Shown: positions 8,863 through 21,887, counted from the first letter of the stretch. The stretch: DNA of 64,000 nucleotides from Deltaproteobacteria bacterium (GCA_017644045.1 JAEPMI010000004.1:142014-206013); one strand, 5' to 3'. The notes: generated by a model from the sequence alone, not told the origin. A program made the numbers and translations.

Positions 8863-11169
8863 ATGCCTGCACGATTCCGCCCGTTCCTCCTGCTCGCGCT
8901 CTCCGTCTCGCTCGCCTGCGGGGACGATGACGACATCGACCCGATGGATGCGGCGGTCGACATGCCGGCGCCGCCGGTGGACATGGGGCCGCCCCCCGAT
9001 CCGCGCCCAGCGGTCGCGCCCTACGTGGACTACGTGGACCCGTTGATCGGGAGCGGCGGCCTCGGCTTCGGGGTCGGGTCGTCCTCGGTCGCGCCGCAGA
9101 CGCCGTTCGGCATGGCGCGCCCGGGTCCGGACACCGCCGGCGAGAGCGGCGCGCTCAGCTTCGCCCACTGCAGCGGGTACTACTACACGACCGACACCTA
9201 CATCTGGGGGTTCAGCCAGATCCGTCCGCACGGCATGGGCGTGCCCGACTACGGCAACGTGGCGCTGATGCCCACGGACGGGATGACCGCCGAGAAGACC
9301 GATCAGGTCGGCTACCGGATGGGCTTCTCGCACGACAACGAGACCGTCCAGGTCGGCTACTACTCGATCACGCTCGACGACGGAATCCGCGCCGAGCTGA
9401 CCGCGAGCGACCGTGTCGCCCACCACCGCTACACCTTCCCCGCCTCGGTGAGCGACCCGACGGTCATCGTCGATGTCGGGCACGTCTTGGCGACCCCGAA
9501 CGTCGAGGTCGCCGAGGGCGACGTGAGCATCGACCCGGACGCACGGGAGGTCCGGGGCATGGGCCGCATCGACGGCGCGTACTCGAACCGCTTCGGCGGC
9601 GTGGGCATCTACTTCGTCGCGCGTTTCGACCAGCCCTTCGAGAGCCACGGGACCTTCGTGGACGGCGCGCTCACTGCCGACGGCACCAGCGTCGAGGGCA
9701 CGACCGCGGGCGCCTACCTCGGCTTCGACGCCGAGACGGTGAACGTGAAGGTCGGCATCAGCTTCGTGGACGAAGCGCACGCGGCGATGAACCTCGACGC
9801 CGAAGACGACACCTTCGAGGCCACCCGCGAAGCCACCGTCGCGCAGTGGGAGGAGCTCCTCTCACGCATCGAGGTCACCGGTCGCTACGAGGACGACTTC
9901 ACCCTCTTCTACACGGCGCTCTACCACGTGCTCCTGATGCCCACGCTGGCCAGCGACGTCGACGACGCGTACCGCGGCATCGACGGCGAGGTCCACGCCA
10001 CCGACGACGAGGGCGAGGCCTTCCGTTACAGCACCGACTTCTCGCTCTGGGACACGTTCCGCACCCAGACCCCGGCGCTGGCGCTCTTCTATCCGGAGCT
10101 GCTCGACGATCAGCTGAAGTCGCTCGTGCGGATGGCCCGCGACGGCGGCTACGCCCCGCGCTGGCCGCTGGGTCACGGCTACACCGGGGGCATGGTCGGC
10201 GACAGCGCCGACCTGGTGATCGCGGACGCGCTGGTGAAGGGCGGACTGCCGATGCCGGCCGAGGAGGCCTACGCCGCGCTCCGGCCGACCGCGTTCGGGC
10301 CGACCGCCGAAGGCTCGAGCTATGGCGGTCGCCGCGGTATCTCCGACTACATGGAGCTCGGCTACGTCCCGATGGACCGGCATGGCTCGTCGGCGTCGGA
10401 GACGCTCGAGTTCGCGTACGACGACTGGGGCTTGGCCCTCGTGGCCGACGCCGCGGGCGAGAGCGCCGACGCCGAGGCGCTCCGTGAGCGCGCGGGCAAC
10501 TGGCGCAACCTGTGGGACCCCGCGACCGAGTTCCTCATCGGGCGCAACGCCGACGGCTCGTTCCCCGCAGAGCTCGACGAGCTCACCTGGGAAGGCTTCT
10601 ACGCCGAAGGCAACGCGCGCCAATACCTCTGGTACGTGCCGCACCAGCTCGACGAGCTGGTCGACCAGATGGGTGGCTGGACCGTGGCCAAGGGGCGCCT
10701 CGATGCGTTCATGACCGGCGCGACGCGACGCACGAGCACGCTCTACCCGCCGAACGACTACTGGCACGGCAACGAGCCCGACATTCACGCGCCGTGGATC
10801 TACTCGTACATGGACGAGCCCTCGGAGACCGCGCGCTGGACCCGCTGGGTCGCGCGCACCCTCTACGGCACCGGCCCCGACGGACTCCCCGGCAACGACG
10901 ACTCCGGCACCCTGAGCGCGTGGCTCGTCTTCTCGATGCTGGGCATCTACCCGATCACCGGCTGGGACCACTACCTGCTCTCGGCGCCCTTCTTCACGGA
11001 GGCGACCGTTCATCTCCCGGACGGTGACCTCCACATCGAGGCACCGGAGAGCTCGGACGGGGCGCTCACGGTCGACGAGCTCCGCTGGAACGGCGAGCCA
11101 CTCGAGCAGGCGCGGATCCCCCACGCCGACCTCGCCGCCGGCGGCACCTTCTCCGCCGACCTCCACTGA
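8863..11169 (+). CDS. glycoside hydrolase family 92 (alpha-mannosidase-like) lipoprotein
   Basis: 768 aa. Lipobox LSVSLAC. GH92-type blocks HWHGNEPDIHAPWIYSY and GLPGNDDSGTLSAWLVFSMLGIYP. Confidence 0.9.
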   Translation: MPARFRPFLLLALSVSLACGDDDDIDPMDAAVDMPAPPVDMGPPPDPRPAVAPYVDYVDPLIGSGGLGFGVGSSSVAPQTPFGMARPGPDTAGESGALSFAHCSGYYYTTDTYIWGFSQIRPHGMGVPDYGNVALMPTDGMTAEKTDQVGYRMGFSHDNETVQVGYYSITLDDGIRAELTASDRVAHHRYTFPASVSDPTVIVDVGHVLATPNVEVAEGDVSIDPDAREVRGMGRIDGAYSNRFGGVGIYFVARFDQPFESHGTFVDGALTADGTSVEGTTAGAYLGFDAETVNVKVGISFVDEAHAAMNLDAEDDTFEATREATVAQWEELLSRIEVTGRYEDDFTLFYTALYHVLLMPTLASDVDDAYRGIDGEVHATDDEGEAFRYSTDFSLWDTFRTQTPALALFYPELLDDQLKSLVRMARDGGYAPRWPLGHGYTGGMVGDSADLVIADALVKGGLPMPAEEAYAALRPTAFGPTAEGSSYGGRRGISDYMELGYVPMDRHGSSASETLEFAYDDWGLALVADAAGESADAEALRERAGNWRNLWDPATEFLIGRNADGSFPAELDELTWEGFYAEGNARQYLWYVPHQLDELVDQMGGWTVAKGRLDAFMTGATRRTSTLYPPNDYWHGNEPDIHAPWIYSYMDEPSETARWTRWVARTLYGTGPDGLPGNDDSGTLSAWLVFSMLGIYPITGWDHYLLSAPFFTEATVHLPDGDLHIEAPESSDGALTVDELRWNGEPLEQARIPHADLAAGGTFSADLH

Positions 11170-11178
11170 ACGCCGTCT

Positions 11179-12123
11179 TCAGAGCGGGAGGACGTGCTGG
11201 GCGTCCAGCCGGTACAGGCTGGTGACGAAGTCGTCTTCGTAGGCCTCGCTCGCTTCGAAGTGGCCGTAGACCTGGACGCCGTGGTTCTCGAGGTTGCGGA
11301 CGCGCTCGGCCATGCGCTCGGGGACACGGACGACGATGGCCTCGTTGATCTCCGGCGGGGCGCCGAAGCAGCAGCTCCAGAGCGACTGGACCAAGAGGTA
11401 CTGGTTCTCTTCGAGCGCGATGAGGTAGCCCCACGCCTTGGCGTTCTTGCCGTCGAGCGCGTTGATCGGACCCGGGAGGTTCATGCCCTCTTCGTAGGGG
11501 AAGCCCTTGAGCAGCGGCCACGCGGCGTCAGCCCACTCACCTTCGGGCTCCTCCATGGTCGCGCCCTCGACCTGGCCGCCGAGGGTCGTGATCAGCGTGC
11601 GCGCCATCATGCGCGCCTGACCGGCGATGGCCTGCTCCTGGAGTGAGCTGAGGCCGCGGTTGCCGTCGGCCTCGGCCGCGCGCGCGACGATGGTGCCGAT
11701 GGCGCCCATGGCCTCCTCGCGACGGCTCTCGGGATCACCGATGCCGGCCTCTTCCAAGACCGCGGCCATCTCGCCAGAGATCTGCTCCTCCTCGACCATC
11801 TCGTCCGAGGCAGCCGTGCGGATCACGCCTTCGAGAATGGTCGCGAGCTTGCCCTGAGTGGAGTCGTCCTCGTCTCCGCGCTCGGCGCTGAAGGTGGTCG
11901 GCTGCCGGAAGGCGCCGGTCATCTCGTCGGTGCACCAGAGCGGCGCGGTCATCAGCGCACCGAGGCCCACGAAGAGCGCGCCGCGCATGACCTTGTCGAA
12001 GGCGCTCCGCTTCACCTTCGGCGCCTCTGCCGCCGGCTCGCTGGCCTTCACGGCCTCGGGCGCTTCCGGCTCGGGCGCGTCCGCCTTCTTCTTCTTCGAC
12101 TTCTTCTTCTTGTCGTCGGCCAT
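11179..12123 (-). CDS. DUF3299-like protein, partner of the ABC transporter
   Basis: Internal Met MADDKKKKSKKKK of ORF 11179..12798 (cat 12121-12123, in frame). One TM segment. C-terminal block GKNAKAWGYLIALEENQYLLVQSLWSCCFGAPPEINEAIVVRVP resembles DUF3299 as I recall it. Lies 2 nt after the permease stop. Confidence 0.7.
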   Translation of the reverse strand: MADDKKKKSKKKKADAPEPEAPEAVKASEPAAEAPKVKRSAFDKVMRGALFVGLGALMTAPLWCTDEMTGAFRQPTTFSAERGDEDDSTQGKLATILEGVIRTAASDEMVEEEQISGEMAAVLEEAGIGDPESRREEAMGAIGTIVARAAEADGNRGLSSLQEQAIAGQARMMARTLITTLGGQVEGATMEEPEGEWADAAWPLLKGFPYEEGMNLPGPINALDGKNAKAWGYLIALEENQYLLVQSLWSCCFGAPPEINEAIVVRVPERMAERVRNLENHGVQVYGHFEASEAYEDDFVTSLYRLDAQHVLPL

Positions 12124-12125
12124 GG

Positions 12126-13712
12126 TCAGCTCGTCGGTCGCAGGTTCTCGGCGACGTCGGTCGCGTAAGCCTTCCACGCGGGCCACAAGCCGGCCAGCGC
12201 CCCCGCGAGGACCACCAGGAGCACCACCAGCCCTTCGGTCGGCACCACGTCGAGTGCATTCGGCCGGAAACCGGCGGCGGACTCCACCCGGCCGGCGGCC
12301 AGGGCCACCAGGGCGTGGCCCATCAACACGCCGAGCCCCGCGCCGATGGCCGTGATGAGGGCGGCCTCGATGACCACGGACCCCAGCACCCACCGTCGCG
12401 GGGCGCCGATGGCGCGGAGGATCGCGACCTCGCGCCGACGCTCGTTCATCGAGTTGTAGAGGGCGATGAGCACCGAGAGGAGCCCGACGACGATGACCAG
12501 GATCGACACCAGGAGGAAGAGCACGTCCACGCTCCCGACGATGTCGAAGAGGTGGCCGATCTCCTCGTGCACGTCCGCGACCTGGATCTCCGGCCGCCGG
12601 TTCAACCGCGAGAGCAGCATCACCTTGTGCACGCCCGGTCGTGGGAACACGAGCACCGCGCTCAACCCCGGCTCGGTGGTCCCCGGAAGGAGCGCGCCGC
12701 CGCGGTGGTCCTCGATGGAGAAGAAGCTGTCGAGCGGGATCAGCACGAGTCGGTCCACCGGTGTGTCGGTGGGCTTCAGGATCCCGACCACTTCCCACAG
12801 GTGCTCGTGGTCGTGCGCGCGCCCGCCCTCGACCCCGTGGGTCGGCTCGATGCGATCACCGACGCGCACCCCGAGCGTGCGCGCGACCTCCGCCCCGACC
12901 ACCGCCTCGTAGTGCGTCTCGTGCTCGTGGTGCTCGTCCTCGTCGTCGACGTGCTCGTCCTCGTCGTGGTCGTGCTCGTCCTCGTCCTCGTCGAGCTCGT
13001 CCTCGTCGTCGTGATGCTCGTCCTCGTCGCCGTCGAGCTCGTCCTCGTCGTCGTGGTGCTCGTCCTCGTCGTCGTGGTGCTCGGCCTCGTCGTCGTGGTG
13101 CGCGGCCGACTCCGACCCCGACTCAAACTCCGACTCCGGCCCAAACTCCTCTTCCTCTGCGCCCTCTGTGGCTCCGTGACTCTGTGCGAGGCCCGGCCCC
13201 CCGCCAGATGCAGACGCCGCGGCCGACGCCGACTCCAGCTCCGCCCCGAGCTCGCGCAGCACGTCCTCGAGCCGCTCCCGATCGAAACGAAACGGCCGCC
13301 CCTCCGCGAGCTTCTCGGCCCCCTCGCCTTCCGGATGCGGCGAGCGCCCGGCGAAGAACGCGTCCGTCGTCGCGACCACCCGGAACCCGCGGAACGAATC
13401 ACCGACCGCGTAGGGCACCGCGAGCGCGACCGAGTCGTCCTCCTCGAGCTCCCACCACACGCGCATGGGCATCAGGCCAGGCGCGTCGTCGACGTGATAG
13501 ACGGCGTTGAGCACCAGCTGCAGCGCCGAGCCGGGCGCGCCGACGACGATCTGGTAGCCCCGACCGGGCGCGTCGTAGTGCCGGTCGAGCGCCCCCTGCA
13601 GGATTAGGATGGCGGTGACCAACATCGTCCCGAGCGCCACGCTCAGCGCCGTGAGCGTCGAGCTCAGCCCGCGCAGGCGCAGGTTGCGCAGCACCAAGCC
13701 GAAGAGACTCAC
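12126..13712 (-). CDS. ABC transporter permease, FtsX/MacB type, with a His/Asp/Glu-rich periplasmic insertion
   Basis: Part of ORF 12126..14393. GTG at 13712-13710 overlaps the ATPase stop (GTGA) and gives VSLFGLVLRNLRLRGLSSTLTALSV, a typical MacB/FtsX N-terminus. The C-terminal FtsX helices include RRREVAILRAIGA. Confidence 0.85.
   Translation of the reverse strand: MSLFGLVLRNLRLRGLSSTLTALSVALGTMLVTAILILQGALDRHYDAPGRGYQIVVGAPGSALQLVLNAVYHVDDAPGLMPMRVWWELEEDDSVALAVPYAVGDSFRGFRVVATTDAFFAGRSPHPEGEGAEKLAEGRPFRFDRERLEDVLRELGAELESASAAASASGGGPGLAQSHGATEGAEEEEFGPESEFESGSESAAHHDDEAEHHDDEDEHHDDEDELDGDEDEHHDDEDELDEDEDEHDHDEDEHVDDEDEHHEHETHYEAVVGAEVARTLGVRVGDRIEPTHGVEGGRAHDHEHLWEVVGILKPTDTPVDRLVLIPLDSFFSIEDHRGGALLPGTTEPGLSAVLVFPRPGVHKVMLLSRLNRRPEIQVADVHEEIGHLFDIVGSVDVLFLLVSILVIVVGLLSVLIALYNSMNERRREVAILRAIGAPRRWVLGSVVIEAALITAIGAGLGVLMGHALVALAAGRVESAAGFRPNALDVVPTEGLVVLLVVLAGALAGLWPAWKAYATDVAENLRPTS
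12910..13103 (-). repeat. imperfect tandem GAC/GAG/CAC codon repeats encoding a His/Asp/Glu-rich tract inside the permease gene
   Basis: The plus strand shows reiterated gtgctcgtcctcgtcgtc(gtg) units. They encode HHDDEAEHHDDEDEHHDDEDELDGDEDEHHDDEDELDEDEDEHDHDEDEHVDDEDEHHEHETH. Confidence 0.85.
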
Positions 13713-14377
13713 GAGTCCACCTCCAGCGGCCCGTCGTCCAGGTCGAGCACCCGCTCGAAGCGGTCGCGCACCCTCGGCTCGTGGGTCACCAGCAGGAGCG
13801 TCGCGCCGGCTTCGGCCACCACCTCGTCGAGCAGGTCGAGCACCTCGGCCGAGCGGCGCTCGTCCAGGCTCGCCGTCGGCTCGTCCGCGAGCACCACCGC
13901 CGGCTTCGTCACCAACGCGCGCGCGATGCCCACCCGCTGCTGCTCGCCCACCGAGAGCGTCCCGGGCCGCGCGTCGAGCCGGTGCCCGAGCTCGACCCGC
14001 TTCAGGATCGCCTCGGCCTTCGACCGCGCGTCGGCGCGCCCCAGCCCCGCGAGGCTCGCGGCCAGCGCCACGTTCTCCATCGCACTCAGCCCCTGGAGGA
14101 GCTGCGCGGTCTGGAAGACGTAGCCGATCTTCTCGGCCCGGAAACGATCGCGAGCCGCCTCCTTCAGAGCGAAGAGGTCGGTCTCGCCGTGCCGGACCCG
14201 GCCCTGGGTCGGGCTCACGATCCCGGCGAGGACATGCAGCAGAGTGGTCTTCCCGCTCCCCGATCCACCGACCACGCATGCGCGCTCGCCCGCCGCCAGA
14301 TGGAGACTGCCCAGCGCGAGTGTCTCCGACCCGGCCTGGCGGCCGAAGGCGACCTCGAGATCGTCCGCGCGGATCAC
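13709..14377 (-). CDS. ABC transporter ATP-binding protein (LolD/MacB-like)
   Basis: Walker A GGSGSGKT, signature LSVGEQQR, Walker B VVLADEPT. GTG start. Confidence 0.92.
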   Translation of the reverse strand: MIRADDLEVAFGRQAGSETLALGSLHLAAGERACVVGGSGSGKTTLLHVLAGIVSPTQGRVRHGETDLFALKEAARDRFRAEKIGYVFQTAQLLQGLSAMENVALAASLAGLGRADARSKAEAILKRVELGHRLDARPGTLSVGEQQRVGIARALVTKPAVVLADEPTASLDERRSAEVLDLLDEVVAEAGATLLLVTHEPRVRDRFERVLDLDDGPLEVDS

Positions 14378-14460
14378 GCCCTCGGCGTGGCACGGTCGGC
14401 GGCTCCGATCAACGGGCGACCGCGATTGACGTTGGCCAGCCGGGACGGCAGAACGTCGCC

Positions 14461-15261
14461 ATGACCATGGACGCCATCGCCCTCCTGAAGCTCTCGCTGG
14501 ACCAGCTCGGGAGCGCTCTCCGCCTCGAGGACGAGACCGACGACACCACGATCTTCCGGGCGATGGGCCGTTCCCTCGAGGCCCGCGCCCTCGACGACTG
14601 CACCACGTTGAACCTGGCGTTCCGCTTCGACACCCCGGAATCCACCCTCGGCTCGGTGCTGCGCCGCGACCTGGGCGAGCTCATCGAGGCCCACGACGAC
14701 GAGCGCGGCGTCTTCGTCTATCCGAGCGTCGCGCACCTCCAGGCGACCGACTACGAGGGCGCCCTCGAGGAGCTCGGCGAAGGCGGCATGTGGGTCGCGA
14801 TTCCGGAGGCCGAGGACGCCCGCGTCGGAGCGGGCGACGCGCTCGGTGTCTTCCAGGGACTGGCGGGGGGTCTCGGCCCCGATCTGATGGGTCAGGTCCA
14901 GCAGATGGTCGGCAACATGCCCAAGGGCGACGACGGCCAGCCCCAGCTCCCCGCCGGCCTCGCGGAGTTCGCCAAGGGATTTCTCGAGAACCCGGAGATG
15001 CGCGGGATGATCGAGGGAATGGCGCAACAGGTCCTCGGCGGTGGCGGGGTCCCCGACGACCTGCTCGGGAAGGCCCAGGAGGTCGCCGAGAAGGCCACCG
15101 CGGCCAACCCGGAGCTCGCCGCTCAGGCGCAGGCGATGGCCGGTGGCTCCGACGCGATCACCGAGCTCGCTCAGAAGCTGGGTCTCGGCGCGGTCGCCCC
15201 TCCTCCCGAGTCGGACGAAGAAGAAGAGGAAGCGGAAGAGGAAGAGGAAGCGGACGACTGA
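14461..15261 (+). CDS. hypothetical acidic protein
   Basis: Internal ATG (MTMDAIALLKLSLDQLG) of ORF 13609..15261, in frame, with high GC3. The upstream part of that ORF is antisense to the ABC ATPase. The C-terminus is poly-Glu (ESDEEEEEAEEEEEADD). Confidence 0.7.
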   Translation: MTMDAIALLKLSLDQLGSALRLEDETDDTTIFRAMGRSLEARALDDCTTLNLAFRFDTPESTLGSVLRRDLGELIEAHDDERGVFVYPSVAHLQATDYEGALEELGEGGMWVAIPEAEDARVGAGDALGVFQGLAGGLGPDLMGQVQQMVGNMPKGDDGQPQLPAGLAEFAKGFLENPEMRGMIEGMAQQVLGGGGVPDDLLGKAQEVAEKATAANPELAAQAQAMAGGSDAITELAQKLGLGAVAPPPESDEEEEEAEEEEEADD

Positions 15262-15265
15262 CGCG

Positions 15266-15886
15266 TCAGTCCTTCGGGGCCTGACGAACCGCGGTGAGCG
15301 TGAGCGTCGGGAGCCGGAGCCCGGCCGACGACGCGATGAAGCCCATCACCGCCGAGGGGTGCACCAGGACCACTTCTCGCAGCTTCGGGCAATGACCGAG
15401 CTCTCGGACCACGACGTCGGTCAGTCCGGGTGGCGGCGTCTCGCCGGGGTTGAGGAGCAGTACGGCGCGATTGCCGTCGCTCACCCGGAGCTTCAGGGAC
15501 GCCGCGCCGAACGCCTGCACCAGCGAGCGCTCGCGCAGGTCGAGGATCGTCGCGCTGCCGTGCGGCGGCGTGAGCGTGTCGTTTCGCCGCTCGTCGACCT
15601 TGGAGAGGTCGCGTTCGCCGCGGACCTTGCAGCGCGGAATGCGGAGCCCGAGCGATGACGCGAGGAAGCCGATGGTCGCGCCCGGATGGACCAGCACGAG
15701 CTCTCGCATCGCTTCGACCTGTTCCGCGCCAGCCGCGATCACTTCCGCGAGCGACGCGCTCACCCGCACGTCCGCGGGAAAGACGAGCGCCACGCTCTCC
15801 GGTCTGGAGGCGGCGACCCGCTTCAGCCCATCCATGATGGACTGCTCCACCTTGGATGCGTCGACCTCGACCACCACCGAGCTCAC
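15266..15886 (-). CDS. hypothetical protein with a tandem internal duplication (weakly STAS-like)
   Basis: C-terminal 206 aa of ORF 15266..16606. GTG 15886-15884 overlaps the upstream stop (GTGA). Two ~95-aa halves share LVLVHPGATIGFLASSLGLRIP / VVLVHPSAVMGFIASSAGLRLP. Confidence 0.65.
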   Translation of the reverse strand: MSSVVVEVDASKVEQSIMDGLKRVAASRPESVALVFPADVRVSASLAEVIAAGAEQVEAMRELVLVHPGATIGFLASSLGLRIPRCKVRGERDLSKVDERRNDTLTPPHGSATILDLRERSLVQAFGAASLKLRVSDGNRAVLLLNPGETPPPGLTDVVVRELGHCPKLREVVLVHPSAVMGFIASSAGLRLPTLTLTAVRQAPKD

Positions 15887-16980
15887 GACGCTGCCCTCGC
15901 ATGACGAGCGAGATCGCCCAAGGCGCGCGCCAGCTCGGCCAGGTCTCCGGCCGTCGTCGTCGAACCGGAAGAGACCCGCACCGTGCCGGTGCGCTCCGTC
16001 CCCAGCACCCGATGAGCACTCGGCGCACAATGGAGCCCCGCTCGGACGGTCACGTCGAAGACCCGGTCCAGCATCTCCTCCACGGCGCGCGGCTCCTGGC
16101 CGGCGACCGTGAAGCTGACGACCGGGAGCGCCGGCGCGTCGGCCGAGCGACCGAGCACACGCAGACCCGCGGCGTGCACGACCTCCTCGAGCGCGCCACT
16201 GGCCGCCTCGACATCCCACGACACGCCCACGCGTGCCGCCGCACCGAGCGCGAGGATTCCCGGCAGGTTGGGGGTCCCGGCCTCGAGTCGCTCGGGGAGC
16301 ACCTCCGGCATCTCGTCGGCGGCCGCGTCGAAGCCCACGCCGCCACGCACCAGCGGCTCGAGCTCGACGCCAGGTCCGACCCCCAGCACGCCGGTGCCAG
16401 GGAGCGCGCGCAGATGCTTGTGCGCGGAGAACGCGACCAGGTCGGCGCCCAGGTCGAGCGACCACACGCCAGCGGTGGGGGCGGCGTCGAGCACCACCCG
16501 CGCCCCCAGCGCTTTCGCCAACGCGCAGAGCGCTTCGACCGGCTGGCCGACCCCGGTCACGTTCGACGAGTGACCCACGACCACCAGCCCGGTGTCGTCG
16601 ACCCACTCCGCGCGGGCCCGGTCGAGATCGATCACTCCGTCGGCATCATGCGGGAGGGTCCACGTGGGCACGCCCAGCGCGCGCGCCGGTCGGCGAGCGG
16701 CGTTGTGGAGCATCGGTCCCAACGCCACCACGCGAGGGCGGGGGCGGAGGCCGGCGATGGCCTGATTGAGCGCGGCGGTCGCTCCCGCGTGGAAGGTCAC
16801 CGTCATGGCCGGAAGGAGCGCGCCGACCGCACGACGGGCACGGTCGACCTCGTCGGCGGCCGCTCGCTGGAGGCGATGGAGACCCCGACCGGGGTTGCCC
16901 AACTCGGCGCCACGAAGCGCACCCTCCAACGCGACGGGCGCACGCGGCAGCGAGGTGGCCGCGTGATCGAAGTAGCTCAC
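15883..16980 (-). CDS. aminotransferase class V-fold PLP enzyme (cysteine desulfurase / selenocysteine lyase-like)
   Basis: 365 aa. GHSSNVTG and the PLP-lysine context FSAHKHL. GTG start overlaps the upstream stop (GTGA at 16977-16980). Confidence 0.85.
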   Translation of the reverse strand: MSYFDHAATSLPRAPVALEGALRGAELGNPGRGLHRLQRAAADEVDRARRAVGALLPAMTVTFHAGATAALNQAIAGLRPRPRVVALGPMLHNAARRPARALGVPTWTLPHDADGVIDLDRARAEWVDDTGLVVVGHSSNVTGVGQPVEALCALAKALGARVVLDAAPTAGVWSLDLGADLVAFSAHKHLRALPGTGVLGVGPGVELEPLVRGGVGFDAAADEMPEVLPERLEAGTPNLPGILALGAAARVGVSWDVEAASGALEEVVHAAGLRVLGRSADAPALPVVSFTVAGQEPRAVEEMLDRVFDVTVRAGLHCAPSAHRVLGTERTGTVRVSSGSTTTAGDLAELARALGDLARHARAAS

Positions 16981-17270
16981 GCGGCCAACTCCCGCGCCAC
17001 GGCGAGCGCCGTCTCCTCGGCGCGATCCCGGTGAGCCAATCGCATGGTGAAACGGACCCGTCGCTCGCCGACGATCCCGGTGAGCAGGAAGAACCCCGGC
17101 CGGTCGTAGCGTGCGAAGGGCTTCGGCAGCGAGTCGAGGACCATCAACGTGCCCGAGCCATCGAGTCGCTCGAGCGCGTCCCGCCGAAGGCCATCGGCGA
17201 GCTCGATTTCGACGACCCGCTCGCCACCGAGACAGTCGCGCATCAGTACGACTTCGGGGTCGGGGCTCAT
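16977..17270 (-). CDS. small hypothetical protein (97 aa)
   Basis: Internal Met MSPDPEVVLMRD of ORF 16977..17657. Its ATG overlaps the upstream stop (ATGA at 17267-17270). GC3-rich. Confidence 0.6.
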   Translation of the reverse strand: MSPDPEVVLMRDCLGGERVVEIELADGLRRDALERLDGSGTLMVLDSLPKPFARYDRPGFFLLTGIVGERRVRFTMRLAHRDRAEETALAVARELAA

Positions 17271-17914
17271 TGTCGCCTGGCGACGAACTCGCAGCGGTCG
17301 GCGCCCGCAGCGCGGCAAACGATCTCTTCGGCGGCGAAACCGGCGTCGTTGCCGAAGAGCTCGGCGTAGTACGTCGGGTTCAGCGCCGGGCGGTTCGTGA
17401 TGTCGCCGTGGTAGAGCAGATTCATGAGCCCGGCGACGCCGCCGGTGGCGAGGAAGCACACGCCGCCGAGCTCGGACTCGCCGTGCTCGGCCAGGTAGCC
17501 CGTCGACTCGTAGCTGTCGGCGACCGCGATGCGCATCTCGTCCTGGGAGAGGTCCTCGACGCTCCATCGCCCCCAGCCGAGCGCGTTGACCACCGCGACG
17601 ATCCCGTACATCCAGTCGGCGCGTTCCTCGATCATCGGCGCGACGACCGCCTCCCACTCCTGCGAGAGCATGATGCCGCCGAAGGTGTTGAACGCGCAGA
17701 TGTGGCCGGCTTCGACCAGCGCCGCTCGCGCCTTCGCGAGCGACGCATCGCCTTCATCTCGCGCGTGGTGCAGGTACGCGTAGGAGACGGCGTTGTAGTA
17801 GGGCGCGTAGTGCCGCGTGAGGTAGAGGCCGAAGGCGGGGATGAGCCCCTCTTCGTTGCCGGCGAGCGGAAGCCCCGCGACCGCCTCGGTGACCGCCCTG
17901 CCGTCGACGCTCAT
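17267..17914 (-). CDS. V4R (4-vinyl reductase-type) domain protein
   Basis: C-terminal 215 aa of ORF 17267..18571, starting MSVDGRAV. The ATG overlaps the upstream stop (ATGA at 17911-17914). C-terminal V4R-like block GGVCFLATGGVAGLMN...CRAAGADRCEFV. Confidence 0.7.
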   Translation of the reverse strand: MSVDGRAVTEAVAGLPLAGNEEGLIPAFGLYLTRHYAPYYNAVSYAYLHHARDEGDASLAKARAALVEAGHICAFNTFGGIMLSQEWEAVVAPMIEERADWMYGIVAVVNALGWGRWSVEDLSQDEMRIAVADSYESTGYLAEHGESELGGVCFLATGGVAGLMNLLYHGDITNRPALNPTYYAELFGNDAGFAAEEIVCRAAGADRCEFVARRQ

Positions 17915-18423
17915 CGGTTCACCGCCACGGTGAAGGCGCAGTCGTCGGCGCCCATGGCGAAACACCGGCTCTCGGTGACCACGACCGCTGCGGGGTCGAC
18001 CGAGTGTGCGACGGCGAAGGCCCCCGCGATGAAGCCGGCCGGGAAGAAGCACGCCGGCGTCTCTCTCGGTCCACGAGTCGCGAGCCACCCCATGGCGTAG
18101 TGCGAGTGCGGTGAGACGGCCTCTCCCCCGTCCGGCCCCAAGGCCCCGAGCGAGAGCGCTCCGAACCCGAGCTCGGCGAAGAGCTGCTCGGCCCGCTGGA
18201 GCAAATCGGCCCCCGTGGCTCCGTCGGCGATGGCTCGAAGCTGCGGGGAGACGGTGTCGACCGCGGCCTTCGTCAGCACCCCCGGGGCCGCCGAGCCCAT
18301 GCCGTCCTCGATCGCCTCCTGCAGCTGGCAGTTGTAGAAATGACAGTGAAAAACCAGGGACTGACCCCCCAGATGGGTGGTCCCCTTTTCCAATTCTGTC
18401 AGATAATTGAATCCCCCACTCAT
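17911..18423 (-). CDS. V4R (4-vinyl reductase-type) domain protein
   Basis: ORF 17911..18423. FHCHFYNCQLQEAIED...PACFFPAGFIAGAFAVAH...ESRCFAMGADDCAFTV matches V4R domain hallmarks (paired Cys near the C-terminus). Confidence 0.7.
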   Translation of the reverse strand: MSGGFNYLTELEKGTTHLGGQSLVFHCHFYNCQLQEAIEDGMGSAAPGVLTKAAVDTVSPQLRAIADGATGADLLQRAEQLFAELGFGALSLGALGPDGGEAVSPHSHYAMGWLATRGPRETPACFFPAGFIAGAFAVAHSVDPAAVVVTESRCFAMGADDCAFTVAVNR

Positions 18424-18439
18424 ACGTCCCAGGATGGAC

Positions 18440-18455
18440 TAACCCATATGGGTTA
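18440..18455. promoter_or_regulatory. perfect 16-bp palindrome TAACCCATATGGGTTA (candidate operator)
   Basis: Seen directly. Lies 17 nt upstream of the first V4R gene ATG (18423), in the 90-bp divergent region shared with yidD. Confidence 0.5.
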
Positions 18456-18513
18456 AGCAACCCCACATGGACGGTGGCTTGCCGACGACCCCCTCGAACG
18501 CCAGTCTGGCGGG

Positions 18514-18765
18514 GTGCTGCGATGGCTCGCGCTGGCGTTGATTCGCCTCTACTGGTGGACCCTCTCGCCATTGATCGGGCGGGTCTGCATCTACGAGCCG
18601 TCGTGCAGCCGGTACACGGCGGCCTGCATCGAGCGCTTCGGCTTCTTCAAGGGCGGCTGGCTCGGCACCAAGCGCATCTGCCGGTGCCATCCCTTCGCCG
18701 AGGGCGGCTTCGACCCGCCGCCTCCCCTGCCGAGCGACATCGACGCACCGGCCGAGTCCGCCTGA
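18514..18765 (+). CDS. yidD: membrane protein insertion efficiency factor YidD
   Basis: LIRLYWWTLSPLIGRVCIYEPSCSRYTAACIERFGFFKGGWLGTKRICRCHPF is the canonical YidD sequence pattern. GTG start. Confidence 0.92.
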   Translation: MLRWLALALIRLYWWTLSPLIGRVCIYEPSCSRYTAACIERFGFFKGGWLGTKRICRCHPFAEGGFDPPPPLPSDIDAPAESA

Positions 18766-18766
18766 C

Positions 18767-19555
18767 TCAGATCGAGTCGAGGGTCTCGAGGTGCCAGCGC
18801 GGTCCGATGTGGCCACACCCGTCGCGACCGATGTCGACCCGGCCAGGGCAGTCGTCCTCGTCGCCCGCGTCGTTGGCGGGCCCGTTGCCGCACTGGATGT
18901 CGTTGTAGACCGGTCGACCCTCGGAGCCGGGCCCTGGTCCGAGGGCATCGCAGACCTGTCGCACCGTCCGTGAGCCGAAGGGCGTCTCTACCTCGATGTC
19001 GCCGATCGCATGATCGAAGGTCGACTCGCAGTAGCACTCGGCGCCGACCGAATAGCTGTCGCTCCAACCGCTCGCAGGATCGCGACCGACCACGTCATCC
19101 ACACGAACGACGTCCGGGTGAGTGCCCTCGGGTGACACGCAGGCCTCGTCCACGCAGCGCATGCTGATGCAGTCCGTGTCGTCCGCGCACGACCTGCCGT
19201 TCTGACAGCTGTCGCAGCCACCCCCGCAATCGACATCGCTCTCGTCGCCGTTGCGAAGCCCGTCGTCGCATGCGGGCCCGGGCCCGAAGTCCAGACCGCC
19301 ATCGTCCCCTCGTCCGAGGTCGGGACTGACGGCACACGCCATCGTCTGATCGATCTCGACGACGCGACCGTCGCGACAACCGTGGGCGATGTAGCCACAG
19401 CGTCCGTCGACGTCGTCGATCGCTTCCACCCGGCAGACATCGGTGAACGAGCAGGCGTCGCCCACCGACGAGCGCATGCAGGCCTCGGGCCCTTCCTCGG
19501 CGTCTTCGTTGCAGCCGAGCAGAAGCACCACCGACGCGAAGATCACGGCACGCAT
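18767..19555 (-). CDS. Cys-rich secreted lipoprotein
   Basis: Lipobox VVLLLGC. Contains a myxobacterial-style Cys module DGLRNGDESDVDCGGGCDSCQNGRSCADDTDCISMRCVDEAC. The C-terminal domain is unassigned. Confidence 0.75.
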   Translation of the reverse strand: MRAVIFASVVLLLGCNEDAEEGPEACMRSSVGDACSFTDVCRVEAIDDVDGRCGYIAHGCRDGRVVEIDQTMACAVSPDLGRGDDGGLDFGPGPACDDGLRNGDESDVDCGGGCDSCQNGRSCADDTDCISMRCVDEACVSPEGTHPDVVRVDDVVGRDPASGWSDSYSVGAECYCESTFDHAIGDIEVETPFGSRTVRQVCDALGPGPGSEGRPVYNDIQCGNGPANDAGDEDDCPGRVDIGRDGCGHIGPRWHLETLDSI

Positions 19556-19595: not shown

Positions 19596-21887
19596 TCAGC
19601 GGCGCCAGACCTGGCGGGCACGACGGTCGACGGATCGGAGCACGTCCTGGAAGCGCGGTTCGTCGTGGAGCCGTTCGAGGATCGGACATCGACGCAGCCA
19701 GACGACGTCCACCAGCGCGCTCTCGGCCGCGTGCTCGAGCATGGTGAGCGCGCGCTCGGTGTCGTTCGCCGCCGCGAAGACCTCGGTGGCGATCTGGAGG
19801 ATCAACGTCCGGAAGCGGAGGTTCGAGGTCGGAATGCCGTGCACCATCGCCTCCGCGACCGAGGCGTCGCCCTCACCGAGGCCGATGTCGAAGAGCCTGG
19901 CGGTTCGCTCGCCGATGGGCGTCGGCAGCTCGGCGGTCACCTGCCGCCAGTGGCGCGCGGCGTCGGTGTCCCCGCGCCAGAGCCCGGCCCGGAACTGGAG
20001 CCCGGCGAGCGGCAACGTCGGGCCGCCAGCGGCCTCGGTCATGGCGTCGACCCACGATTGGAAGCTCGCCCAGCGCCCCTGCAGCGCATCGAGCCGCGCC
20101 AGCGAGAAGCGCGCGGCGCTCAGCGAGGGGTCGAGCTCGAGCGCGAGCTCCAGCCGCTCCCGACCTTCGCGCTCGCGCCCGGCCTCGATCTGGAGCGCGC
20201 CGAGGTACTGGTGGGCGAACGCCAGCGTCGGCACCAGCTCGAGCGCCTCGGTCGTCGACCGAGCGACCTGGCGAAAGTCCCCGGTCTGTCCCGCGAGCAT
20301 GGCCCGCGCGAGGTGCGTCTCGCCCAGCTTCGGCGCGTCCTCGACCGCGCGCCAGACGTGCTGGGTCGCGCGCTCGGCTCGCTCGCCGTCGGGGTCGGGC
20401 CGCCCCCACCACGCCCGCACGCTGGCCATCGCGAGCGCGGCGATGGCCGGTGCCATCCGGGGCGCGAGCTCGAGGCTCCGCTGCAGGTCCGCTTCGGCGC
20501 GATCGGGCTCGTGCATCACGTCCGCCATCAACCCGCGCCGACCGCGCAGGTAGAGCGACACCGCCTCCTCGGAGGTGCTCCCTCGGTAGTGCGCCGCCTC
20601 CACCTCGAGGCGGAGCGCCTCGGCGACCCGGCGACCCAGCGACTCCTGCAGCGCGAGCACGTCGGAGAAGCGCCCTTCGAAGGGCTCGCTCCAGAGCTGC
20701 ACGCCGGCGGCGTCGCTCAGCCGAGCGCTGAGCCGAACGCGGTCGCCACCGAGCGTGACGGTACCGTCCACCACCGCCGTCGCGCGGAGCTCGCGGGCGA
20801 TGCGTCGCGGGTCCCGCTCGTCCTCGAAGCGCCGCGTCGCGCCGAGCGCCAGGACCTTCAGCCCGCGCGTTCGCGAGAGCACGTCGATGAGCTCCTCGGC
20901 CAGCCCCTCCCCGAGGTAGTCGTGCTCGACCGGCCCTCGATAGCGGAGGGGCAACACGGCCACGGACGGTTGCCCATCGGAGGGCAGCGGCGCGAAGAGA
21001 CTCATCCGTCCCGACGTCGTCTTCAGCGCGCCACCGGAGCCGAGCGCCTCTTCGACCACGGCCGCGGATCGCGGGCGTTCGTTGGGCTCGCGTCGAAGGC
21101 AGCGCATGACGATCTCGGCGAGCGGGTCGGGGATGCTGGCGAGCGAGCGCGGATCCTCCGGCACCTCGTGGAGGAGCCGCTGCGACACCACCGCCATCGG
21201 AGTGGTCCCCTCAAAGGGCGGACGGCCCGTGAGCAGCTCGTAGAGGATGCAACCGAGCGCGTAGAGATCGGTTCGCGCGTCCACCGGCTGACCGGAGACC
21301 TGCTCGGGCGCCATGTAGTGGGGGGTGCCGAGGAGCGCCCCGGTCTCGTGAGTGCGGTCCTGCGTCTCCGCTGCCCGCGCGATGCCGAAGTCGGTGATCC
21401 GGACGCGGCCGTCATCGGCGACGAGCACGTTCGCCGGTTTGAGATCGCGGTGAATCACCCCCGCCTCGTGGGCGGCGTGCAGCCCCGAAGCGATCGCGAC
21501 CCCGATGGGTACGGCCTCCTCCGGTGAGAGCGCGGTGCGGTCTCGGATCACCTCGTCGAGCGGTCGCCCTTCGACGAGCTCCATCGTGAGGAAGTGGAGG
21601 CCGCGATCTTCGCCGAGGTCGTGGGTCCGGACGATGTTCGGGTGGGTGACCTTTCGGCCGAGCTTCACCTCGCGCGAGAAGCGTTCGATGGCAGCGGGGC
21701 TCGTCCGGGCGAGCACCTTGAGCGCGACGTGCTCTCCCAGCGCGCGATCCCAGACGCGGTAGACCGCGCCCATTCCACCCACGCCGAGCAGCCCTTCCAC
21801 TTCGTAGCGCTCGGCGAGGACCTCGCCCTCGCTCAACGTGCGCGTCGTGCTTCCGTTCGCCCCCCCGTCCCGTTCATCGGACGTCAT
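19596..21887 (-). CDS. Ser/Thr protein kinase with C-terminal TPR-like region
   Basis: GVGGMGAVY, VALKVL, HRDLKPANVLV, DFGIA, GTPHYMAPE. Followed by SVAVLPLRY...LGEGLAEELI and helical repeats. Confidence 0.92.
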   Translation of the reverse strand: MTSDERDGGANGSTTRTLSEGEVLAERYEVEGLLGVGGMGAVYRVWDRALGEHVALKVLARTSPAAIERFSREVKLGRKVTHPNIVRTHDLGEDRGLHFLTMELVEGRPLDEVIRDRTALSPEEAVPIGVAIASGLHAAHEAGVIHRDLKPANVLVADDGRVRITDFGIARAAETQDRTHETGALLGTPHYMAPEQVSGQPVDARTDLYALGCILYELLTGRPPFEGTTPMAVVSQRLLHEVPEDPRSLASIPDPLAEIVMRCLRREPNERPRSAAVVEEALGSGGALKTTSGRMSLFAPLPSDGQPSVAVLPLRYRGPVEHDYLGEGLAEELIDVLSRTRGLKVLALGATRRFEDERDPRRIARELRATAVVDGTVTLGGDRVRLSARLSDAAGVQLWSEPFEGRFSDVLALQESLGRRVAEALRLEVEAAHYRGSTSEEAVSLYLRGRRGLMADVMHEPDRAEADLQRSLELAPRMAPAIAALAMASVRAWWGRPDPDGERAERATQHVWRAVEDAPKLGETHLARAMLAGQTGDFRQVARSTTEALELVPTLAFAHQYLGALQIEAGREREGRERLELALELDPSLSAARFSLARLDALQGRWASFQSWVDAMTEAAGGPTLPLAGLQFRAGLWRGDTDAARHWRQVTAELPTPIGERTARLFDIGLGEGDASVAEAMVHGIPTSNLRFRTLILQIATEVFAAANDTERALTMLEHAAESALVDVVWLRRCPILERLHDEPRFQDVLRSVDRRARQVWRR

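Follow-up and report, generated by a model that had tools for sequence, protein, structure and literature searches.

The window analysed here is a 64,000-nucleotide (nt) stretch of DNA from a Deltaproteobacteria bacterium (GCA_017644045.1 JAEPMI010000004.1:142014-206013), and its minus strand carries, at positions 15266-18423, a unit of five genes that was recognised in the open reading frame (ORF) listing and by direct reading of the strand. The genes encode two V4R-domain proteins (V4R1 and V4R2), a 97-residue protein (p97), a class-V pyridoxal phosphate (PLP) enzyme and a fifth, internally duplicated protein (dup). We found that V4R1 and V4R2 correspond to the two halves of a widespread tandem-V4R protein. 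The explanation that we favour, with a probability of roughly 0.45, is that the V4R pair forms a heterodimeric sensor whose invariant Cys and His residues would constitute a functional site, probably at the subunit interface, and that the desulfurase and p97 would deliver sulfur to this site, as an Fe-S cluster or a persulfide. The first-pass annotation, made from the sequence alone, had guessed at a ligand- or persulfide-handling sensory complex, which points in the same direction as our own, likewise conjectural, explanation.

V4R1 (17911-18423, minus strand, 170 amino acids (aa)) and V4R2 (17267-17914, minus strand, 215 aa) matched the Pfam V4R family (PF02830; gathering score, 31 bits) with E-values of 3e-6 (27.6 bits) and 1e-5 (25.6 bits), respectively. 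Orthologues of V4R1 scored above the V4R cut-off, with values of up to 38.8 bits, 23 of the 24 relatives of V4R2 matched V4R (best E-value, 4.9e-9), and a fused relative (locus L019) reached 56 bits over two V4R stretches. The conserved-glycine pattern of the domain (G-x3-G pairs; Podar 2008) was found in both proteins. These data indicate that the V4R membership of both proteins, which the first-pass annotation had proposed, holds at the family level. V4R was the only domain detected in V4R1 and V4R2 in the Pfam and NCBIfam searches, which gave no AAA+, HTH or XylR_N match. Assignments to two named V4R proteins were rejected: BchJ (bacteriochlorophyll 4-vinyl reductase) gave no NCBIfam match at E<=1, and the match to MsvR, confined to the V4R part, scored 19.8 bits against a cut-off of 220.

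The comparison of V4R1 with V4R2 identified them as paralogues (hhalign, 98.6%; E = 1.4e-15). A scan with the V4R2 profile, carried out on one genome per species, yielded 80 loci, and the two genes are neighbours in nearly all of them. They are joined into one ORF of approximately 410 aa, with the same domain order, in 36 of 74 loci and are separate in the other 38, mostly with an overlap of 1 nt (28 loci) or 4 nt. The fused protein spans more than 10 phyla, with representatives in Nitrospinota, an anammox planctomycete, Hydrogenedentota, Sericytochromatia, Bradymonadia, Holophagae, Leptospiraceae, Deinococcota, sulfur-oxidising Gammaproteobacteria, Campylobacterota, Bacteroidia and Myxococcota. 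By these comparisons, V4R1 is the N-terminal half and V4R2 the C-terminal half of a split tandem-V4R protein, and the two V4R proteins, taken as stand-alone in the first-pass annotation, are no unusual pairing but the split form of a widespread fused protein. The fusion of V4R1 and V4R2 provides strong genomic evidence of a 1:1 complex, and the pair is most likely a heterodimeric sensor. One metagenome-assembled genome (MAG), XB_MAG420, was observed to carry a split five-gene locus (L004) together with a fused tandem-V4R locus (L048), and the two types may therefore be paralogous systems rather than alternatives.

Residue conservation, computed over 76 V4R1 and 81 V4R2 sequences, revealed invariant positions in both halves. 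His26, Cys27 and Tyr30 (76/76), as well as G86, G88 and G130, are invariant in V4R1, where the N-terminal helix bears His26-Cys27 (codons 18348-18343) as part of an HCH or HCN motif. The invariant residues of V4R2 are Cys73 (codon 17698-17696), T77, S84, W87, P93, D100, G113-W114-G115 and E136, and G158 and G162 are 91-95% conserved. V4R1 C27 and V4R2 C73 are the only invariant Cys residues in the family of the pair; the cysteines of the zinc type, which lie in a C125...E-x2-C154-x7-C162 motif in V4R1 and in a site made up of C153, E197, C200 and C208 in V4R2, are conserved at 60-94%. The first-pass annotation had correctly read a C-terminal Cys pair in each of the two window proteins (SRCFAMGADDCAF; VCRAAGADRCEF), but this pair is not the hallmark of the family, the invariant residues being V4R1 His26/Cys27 and V4R2 Cys73.

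The best PDB match of the V4R2 family profile was the MopR phenol-sensor domain (E of about 0.01). C153, C200 and C208 of V4R2 align with C155, C181 and C189 of MopR, which are ligands of a structural zinc approximately 10 A from the phenol pocket (PMC9556785), and the Cys...E-x2-C-x7-C zinc-type motif of MopR and PoxR is present in both window V4R proteins. The C-terminal Cys pair, which falls on the structural zinc position of MopR in this alignment, is therefore the generic V4R zinc motif; the V4R Zn site has been described as variable (PMC10933270). V4R, Bet3 and PoxR proteins are known to form homo- or heterodimers (PMC2253512, PMC10933270, PMC9556785), and the interface of the PoxR, MopR, Bet3 and TRAPPC3 dimers is formed by N-terminal helices, with the ligand cavities opening nearby (PMC2253512, PMC10933270). 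The ligands of the V4R domains characterised so far are phenols or lipids, and these domains work by allostery (PMC9556785, PMC10933270). The V4R fold is that of the MopR and PoxR phenol sensors and of TRAPP Bet3, with H-NOX as a more distant relation; all of them are dimeric, with a ligand cavity buried close to the interface of the N-terminal helices.

The genes immediately downstream of the V4R genes were scanned at loci without the window-type p97 and PLP pair, with up to two ORFs taken per locus. Among the 69 ORFs obtained, we found HATPase_c in 18, PAS_4 in 17, HisKA in 11, STAS in 10, receiver and Hpt domains in 7 each, and SpoIIE and Aminotran_5 in 4 each; representative proteins were PAS-kinases, hybrid kinases, a CheA-like protein, PAS-PP2C and PAS-STAS proteins. 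Genes for histidine kinases, PAS-STAS or PP2C proteins are thus the usual followers of the tandem-V4R gene, and the family therefore behaves, much as H-NOX does, like an independent input module of signal transduction. All three cyanobacterial five-gene loci, and the myxococcal locus L008, have a divergent (GAF-)HisKA-HATPase kinase directly upstream. A type I NifS-like PLP gene follows the fused V4R gene and a small protein at L047, L049, L052 and L056, which suggests that the association with a desulfurase is recurrent. At L047, the PLP gene is directly followed by an alpha/beta hydrolase gene (10217-11377, plus strand) with a weak match to palmitoyl-protein thioesterase, a curious neighbour because the V4R homologue Bet3 is palmitoylated. 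Nine loci within L069-L080, from Campylobacterota, Thiodiazotropha and Thiomicrospira, were observed to share a conserved ORF of approximately 75 aa without a Pfam match directly upstream of the fused V4R gene and a GAF-PAS histidine kinase gene directly downstream of it; a p97-like ORF was not detected at these nine loci.

The five genes of the window are chained by a 4-nt overlap of stop and start at every junction: ATGA at 17914-17911 (V4R1 to V4R2) and at 17270-17267 (V4R2 to p97), and GTGA at 16980-16977 (p97 to PLP enzyme) and at 15886-15883 (PLP enzyme to dup). Our reading of the sequence reproduced all coordinates and overlaps of the first-pass annotation. Ten species of Myxococcota, three of cyanobacteria and nine metagenome contigs were found to have the same five genes in the same order, so that the tight coupling noted at the outset is accompanied by a conserved gene order in both phyla. 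A syntenic Sandaracinus MAG (L001; 80-89% identity), found via the fifth protein, contains all five genes, and so does a second locus found in the same way (L002), the flanks of which differ from those of L001. All four 4-nt overlaps are also present in L001, L002 and L004. The 10 Myxococcota species (L003-L012) have the order V4R1-V4R2-p97-PLP, with a duplicated fifth gene in 8 of the 10 and a single-domain version in L009 and L011. The three cyanobacterial loci (L018, L020 and L028) also have V4R1-V4R2-p97-PLP, and the end of the cyanobacterial PLP gene is overlapped by a gene of 105-114 aa that encodes the dup domain once (hhalign, 96.7%; hmmsearch, 3e-13). When metagenome contigs were scanned with p97 as the anchor, all eight true loci showed V4R1-V4R2 upstream, the PLP gene downstream and the dup domain, within the limits of the contigs. 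A start codon at -4 is available at the p97-PLP junction in 13 of 14 loci, at the PLP-dup junction in 8 of 9 and at the V4R2-p97 junction in 9 of 14, counts that are biased towards overlap as the script takes the candidate start nearest to the stop. Since window V4R2 is closer to the cyanobacterial copies (52-53% identity) than to the fused-type copies of Myxococcota (45-50%), the comparison suggests that the whole operon moved between phyla.

p97 (16977-17270, minus strand, 97 aa) gave no credible match in Pfam, NCBIfam or the PDB, either as a single sequence or as a family alignment, in agreement with the first-pass annotation, which had placed it in no recognised family. HMMER, run exhaustively against 1.8 billion representative proteins, retrieved only 23 relatives at E<=1e-3, two of which are repeat artefacts. 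The family has two motifs: DC[LF][GD]G, which contains Cys13 (codon 17234-17232) and in which the Cys is more than 90% conserved, and LPRPFFR.D.PG.F.L.G (LPRPFFR.D.PG.FLLTG in the window). The AlphaFold2 (AF2) model of p97 (predicted local distance difference test score (pLDDT), 92.8) shows a beta-sheet of six strands and a long C-terminal helix, with Cys13 at the turn following strand 1; a seventh strand in the model, 61-67, is probably continuous with one of the six. Foldseek found nothing significant for this model, the best TM-scores being 0.5-0.58, to TBP half-domains. The assignment of p97 to SufE, CsdE, SufU or TusA, or to a frataxin, longin or roadblock fold, was supported by neither Foldseek nor profile searches, and a match to YiiM_3-alpha (18 bits, 1 of 21 members) was treated as spurious.

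Genes of the p97 family always adjoin tandem-V4R genes, class-V PLP genes or both. The distant relatives of p97 have an adjacent class-V PLP gene in 13 of 13 further loci (L083-L095); the encoded enzymes are 33-44% identical to the window enzyme, and the usual order is PLP followed by the p97-like gene, often with a 4-nt overlap. At two of these loci (L090 and L093), the neighbouring proteins of 171/172 aa and 193/194 aa are homologues of V4R1 and V4R2 (hmmsearch, 5e-41 and 3e-31) that retain the HCH motif, and the four-protein core therefore recurs in a different gene order. The core at L090, V4R1-V4R2-PLP-p97-like, is followed by genes for two response regulators, a DUF4388 protein, a Roadblock/LC7 protein and a P-loop protein with a weak Arf match, and Roadblock is also encoded at L093 and L086; the GTPase-like match is below the Pfam cut-off. 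The distant core was observed at L090 (272-5946) and L093 (761-7321) together with response regulators, DUF4388/PatA_N, Roadblock/LC7 and a small Ras/Arf-GTPase-like protein, and the PLP and p97-like genes of L093 run divergently to the V4R genes. The p97 hidden Markov model (HMM) also detected p97-like ORFs with the DC motif between the fused V4R gene and a kinase gene, at loci without a PLP gene (L019, 4e-7; L029; L053). The small ORFs located at the p97 position in the Polyangium-type and Myxococcus-type loci share a conserved Cys. A link of the small ORFs designated c37 to p97 was not established. One relative of p97 on a metagenome contig (P0153) carries a fused C-terminal 4Fe-4S dicluster domain of the ferredoxin type. 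We propose p97 as a candidate link between the PLP enzyme and the V4R pair, in the role of either a sulfur acceptor or a coupler.

The fourth gene (15883-16980, minus strand, 365 aa) matched Pfam Aminotran_5 with an E-value of 1e-45. The nearest relatives of known structure were SufS-type desulfurases, the best PDB match being the cysteine desulfurase 5b7s (E = 1.6e-26), in which FSGHK and RSGHHCA align with FSAHK and RAGLHCA of the window enzyme. The residues typical of group II were all found: the PLP-binding Lys188 (16419-16417) in the SxHK motif, the stacking His137, Asp165 and the catalytic Cys318 (16029-16027) in RAGLHCA, which conforms to RxGxHCA. The N-terminus is short. The best NCBIfam match was TIGR01977, with 240 bits against a cut-off of 377, and the scores for SclA (166 against 525), SufS (126 against 475) and CsdA (69 against 607) were likewise below the cut-offs. 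These results place the enzyme in the SufS-type (group II) cysteine-desulfurase family, with the corresponding predicted activity, as a distinct subfamily below every named equivalog cut-off; the description of gene 4 in the first-pass annotation as a cysteine-desulfurase-like class-V PLP enzyme was thus borne out, with intact catalytic residues. Membership in a Dnd/Ssp anti-phage system was rejected, as the enzyme showed only a generic DndA/SspA match (E-values of 1e-26 to 2e-27) and the other four proteins had no PADLOC match.

The fifth protein (15266-15886, minus strand, 206 aa) consists of two repeats that align with each other (hhalign, 99.8%; E = 3e-28), and is a true tandem duplication of a new domain of approximately 100 aa. 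The domain is marked by the motif LVHPSxxxGFxASSxxLRxP and by His67 and His176, and single-domain versions occur in L009, L011, L102, L103 and the cyanobacteria, including L020 and L028. None of 10 members matched Pfam, and no PDB or NCBIfam sequence match was obtained. The AF2 model (pLDDT, 81; predicted TM-score (pTM), 0.55) shows 2 x (beta-alpha)3-beta, for which Foldseek gave TM-scores of <=0.37, to leucine-rich repeat and TIM-barrel proteins, and no STAS protein among the top 50 PDB matches. A STAS-like fold was rejected, with hhalign E-values of 0.25-0.6 against the STAS domains of neighbouring PAS-STAS proteins and no STAS match in Pfam or Foldseek; of the earlier description as a duplicated STAS-like protein of no recognised family, the duplication and the lack of a family stand but the STAS label does not. 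A word-based homology search with the fifth protein retrieved only 3 relatives, and later profile searches showed that the domain is distributed more broadly.

The sequence data establish the gene structure, the family assignments, the fusion and fission of the V4R pair, the co-conservation of the genes, the conserved residues and the gene neighbourhoods. According to the explanation that we favour, the products of the operon would form one multiprotein unit around a cytoplasmic sensor, in which a 1:1 heterodimer of V4R1 and V4R2 would be the split equivalent of the single-chain tandem-V4R protein. Elsewhere, the signal of this module would be taken up by histidine kinases, by partner-switching proteins of the PAS-STAS type, by PP2C phosphatases or by pairs of Roadblock and GTPase proteins. 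In the lineage of the window operon, the SufS-type desulfurase would transfer sulfur from cysteine to its own Cys318, and from there to Cys13 of p97, which would be a new acceptor in the role of SufE, CsdE or SufU. p97 would then pass the sulfur to the Cys/His site of the sensor (V4R1 His26/Cys27 and V4R2 Cys73), where it may either build a cofactor, namely an Fe-S cluster or a persulfide, or be the signal itself. The fifth protein may be an accessory subunit or adaptor, a pseudo-dimer of the domain that is single-copy, and presumably dimeric, in cyanobacteria.

Several points weigh against this explanation. A heterodimer acting as a sensor, the direction in which sulfur moves and its target, and the identity of the cofactor or ligand are all inferred, as are the protein contacts and the sulfur transfer within the operon. 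p97 showed no fold similarity to SufE, SufU, CsdE or TusA in Foldseek. Most tandem-V4R loci have no PLP gene, and the core function of the family therefore does not depend on a desulfurase. Since p97-like proteins accompany V4R proteins and a kinase at loci without a PLP gene (L019 and L029), a role of p97 as a coupler fits as well as that of a sulfur acceptor. The Polyangium-type small ORFs resemble p97 only weakly (hhalign E-values of 1e-3 to 1e-4; probability, 21-52%), the Cys and His residues that are invariant could serve as a structural metal site between the subunits, and the window operon contains no recognisable gene for a signalling output. A more far-reaching proposal would make tandem-V4R proteins with p97 an unrecognised class of cytoplasmic sensors spanning phyla, with a sulfur-dependent cofactor (Fe-S or persulfide) at a Cys/His site formed by three proteins, which in some cases would be matured by their own desulfurase and would feed into two-component, partner-switching and Roadblock/small-GTPase pathways; we regard this wider generalisation as improbable. 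If the Roadblock/small-GTPase link is true, it would represent a bacterial relative of the logic of the Bet3 heterodimer, roadblock proteins and GTPase in TRAPP.

The main rival is a ligand-regulated enzyme, which we consider unlikely although it is the strongest of the alternatives: the V4R heterodimer would sense a small, probably hydrophobic ligand, the desulfurase would be the output, in the position occupied at other loci by kinases, phosphatases or STAS proteins, p97 would be a universal coupler, and the sensor would receive no sulfur. The modular composition of the loci, in which the V4R pair is followed by a small protein and then by a kinase, PP2C, PAS-STAS or PLP gene, is consistent with this, as is the position of the p97-like proteins between the fused V4R protein and a kinase where a PLP gene is absent; known V4R domains, moreover, are allosteric binders of phenols or lipids (PMC9556785, PMC10933270). 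However, a signalling protein and a PLP gene occur together at L054, as do a kinase and a PLP gene at the cyanobacterial loci, and the PLP gene is therefore not a simple replacement of an output. Nor does a ligand-regulated enzyme explain the invariant Cys on all three partners, and the p97-PLP junction, rather than any other, is the tightest one (start codon at -4 in 13 of 14 loci). We think it somewhat less probable that the operon encodes a biosynthetic or carrier complex, in which the V4R pair would bind, as has been suggested for BchJ, a hydrophobic substrate on which the PLP enzyme would act as a sulfur donor or C-S lyase, with p97 and dup as pathway-specific helpers, and the product would be a sulfur-containing small molecule. 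Class-V enzymes do include C-S lyases, with a weak EgtE match of 2.4e-11 for the window enzyme, the full translational coupling of the five genes would suit an enzyme complex, and there is no signalling gene in the window operon. On the other hand, no further biosynthetic genes are conserved around the operon, as illustrated by the different flanks of L001 and L002, no BchJ or other equivalog match was obtained, and the wider V4R family is overwhelmingly tied to signalling genes.

The Roadblock neighbours raise the idea of a proto-TRAPP scaffold, in which a Bet3-like V4R heterodimer and small alpha/beta subunits would regulate GTPases of the Roadblock/MglA type and the PLP enzyme would be a moonlighting or regulatory subunit. 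The core at L090 beside response regulators, DUF4388, Roadblock/LC7 and the P-loop protein, the Roadblock genes at L093 and L086, and the homology of V4R to Bet3, which forms heterodimers in TRAPP (PMC2253512), speak for it. This arrangement was nevertheless found in two or three loci only, with the GTPase match at L090 below the Pfam cut-off; neither the window operon nor its relatives have a Roadblock or GTPase gene in their vicinity, and p97 matches neither the longin nor the roadblock fold in Foldseek, so that we consider the idea very improbable. The least credible explanation, in our view hardly tenable, is that the five genes are functionally unrelated and that their overlaps reflect the compact packing usual in genomes with high G+C. 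Overlaps of 4 nt are the commonest class between co-directional bacterial genes, and the probability that chance places an NTGA start at a TGA stop is fairly high. Chance adjacency, however, does not account for an order that is the same across two phyla and at 22 independent loci whose flanks differ, nor for the recurrence of the four core genes in another order in L090 and L093.

The operon was also compared with known systems. It shares with the sensory A domains of the phenol-responsive sigma-54 activators XylR, DmpR, MopR and PoxR the V4R fold, the zinc motif and, as far as the dimer proposed here is concerned, a dimeric form with a buried ligand pocket (PMC9556785). In contrast to these activators, the operon V4R proteins have no AAA+ or DNA-binding domain and no XylR_N, and consist of two different V4R chains or a tandem fusion instead of a homodimer; the phenol-contacting W134 of MopR aligns with a variable residue of the operon family, and the invariant HCH motif and Cys73 of the latter are absent from the literature on XylR, DmpR, MopR and PoxR. 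The SufS-SufE, SufS-SufU and CsdA-CsdE systems have the same SufS-type Lys, His, Asp and RxGxHCA Cys and a coupled small protein with one conserved Cys, but p97 has no similarity in sequence or fold to SufE, SufU, CsdE or TusA, so that only the logic is shared; furthermore, SufBCD or other scaffold genes are missing at the operon, where the partner is the V4R pair.

Like H-NOX in the HnoX-HnoK pair, the operon sensor would be a small cytoplasmic protein of related fold that binds a ligand or cofactor beside a kinase or output regulated in trans (fold kinship, PMC10933270). It differs in having no heme-binding signature, in being made of two chains or of a tandem fusion, accompanied by a third, small partner, and in the absence of a kinase from the window operon. 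With TRAPP Bet3 it shares V4R homology, paralogous chains in obligate dimers, as predicted for the operon, and conserved Gly motifs in packed helices (PMC2253512), whereas the operon is bacterial and has Roadblock/GTPase neighbours only in the distant loci L090 and L093. Slr0144 and Slr0147 are V4R paralogues according to a paper on thylakoid emergence. Compared by description only, the Synechocystis slr0144-slr0152 (PAP) operon resembles the window operon in having two V4R proteins in one operon and differs in that its V4R genes are non-adjacent. The Synechocystis operon also encodes 2Fe-2S proteins, and we know of no PLP enzyme in it. The literature search found nothing linking V4R with a cysteine desulfurase, nor V4R with a histidine kinase or a heterodimer, and the literature on the persulfide sensor FisR contained nothing on V4R. 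Apart from the V4R domain and the class-V/SufS-like desulfurase, membership in each of the named subfamilies was rejected, and the operon, as judged from its sequences, appears to match no characterised pathway, as the first-pass annotation had supposed.

To our knowledge, V4R is among the least understood of the common ligand-binding domains of bacteria, only the phenol-sensing activators and the redox-sensitive MsvR having been studied in depth. The window locus points to a large, uncharacterised tandem-V4R family in more than 10 phyla, with an invariant Cys/His site of its own and links to kinases, phosphatases and partner switching. A tractable handle is offered by Sandaracinaceae and some cyanobacteria, which have the module as split subunits with a dedicated cysteine desulfurase. 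The operon further contains two orphan proteins, one of which, p97, may represent a desulfurase partner of a new kind. If the sulfur relay is true, sulfur trafficking would gain a new cofactor chemistry of sensors and a further family of acceptors; if it is false, the fusion/fission and neighbourhood data would still define a sensor family worth naming. The system is widespread, coherent and experimentally approachable, while its function rests on inference.

The boundaries of the operon are set by a divergent yidD gene upstream (18514-18765, plus strand) and by a convergent plus-strand gene downstream, the stop of which at 15261 is 4 nt from that of dup; the unit therefore comprises exactly five genes, and there is no space for a terminator between the two stops. 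The convergent gene (approximately 14440-15261, plus strand) encodes a poly-Glu C-terminal tail. The G+C content is about 70% across the operon. No Rfam family was found in or upstream of the operon, which includes riboswitches and known RNAs upstream; likewise, neither a sigma-70 consensus nor a convincing terminator interrupting the operon was found. A terminator-like hairpin followed by a T-run was observed at 18347-18372 (minus strand), inside codons 18-26 of V4R1 and just before the invariant HCH motif; three such hairpins were found against 1.3 expected, which is within chance expectation. The 90-nt intergenic region at 18424-18513 is common to V4R1 and the divergent yidD, and contains, 16 nt ahead of the V4R1 ATG, a perfect 16-nt palindrome, TAACCCATATGGGTTA, at 18440-18455. 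The first-pass annotation was right as to its presence, but a role as a conserved operator was rejected, as neither the closest relative (L003) nor any other locus inspected has the palindrome.

Farther upstream on the same strand lie genes for a Cys-rich, lipoprotein-looking protein of 262 aa (18767-19555, minus strand) and a Ser/Thr kinase with a TPR region (19596-21887, minus strand). Both are syntenic in L001 but missing from L002, and are therefore probably outside the system. On the other side, an FtsX/MacB-type permease ORF (12126-14393, minus strand) contains a long low-complexity insert rich in His, Asp and Glu (HHDDEDEHHDDEDELD...) and is adjoined by an ABC ATPase gene (13709-14377).

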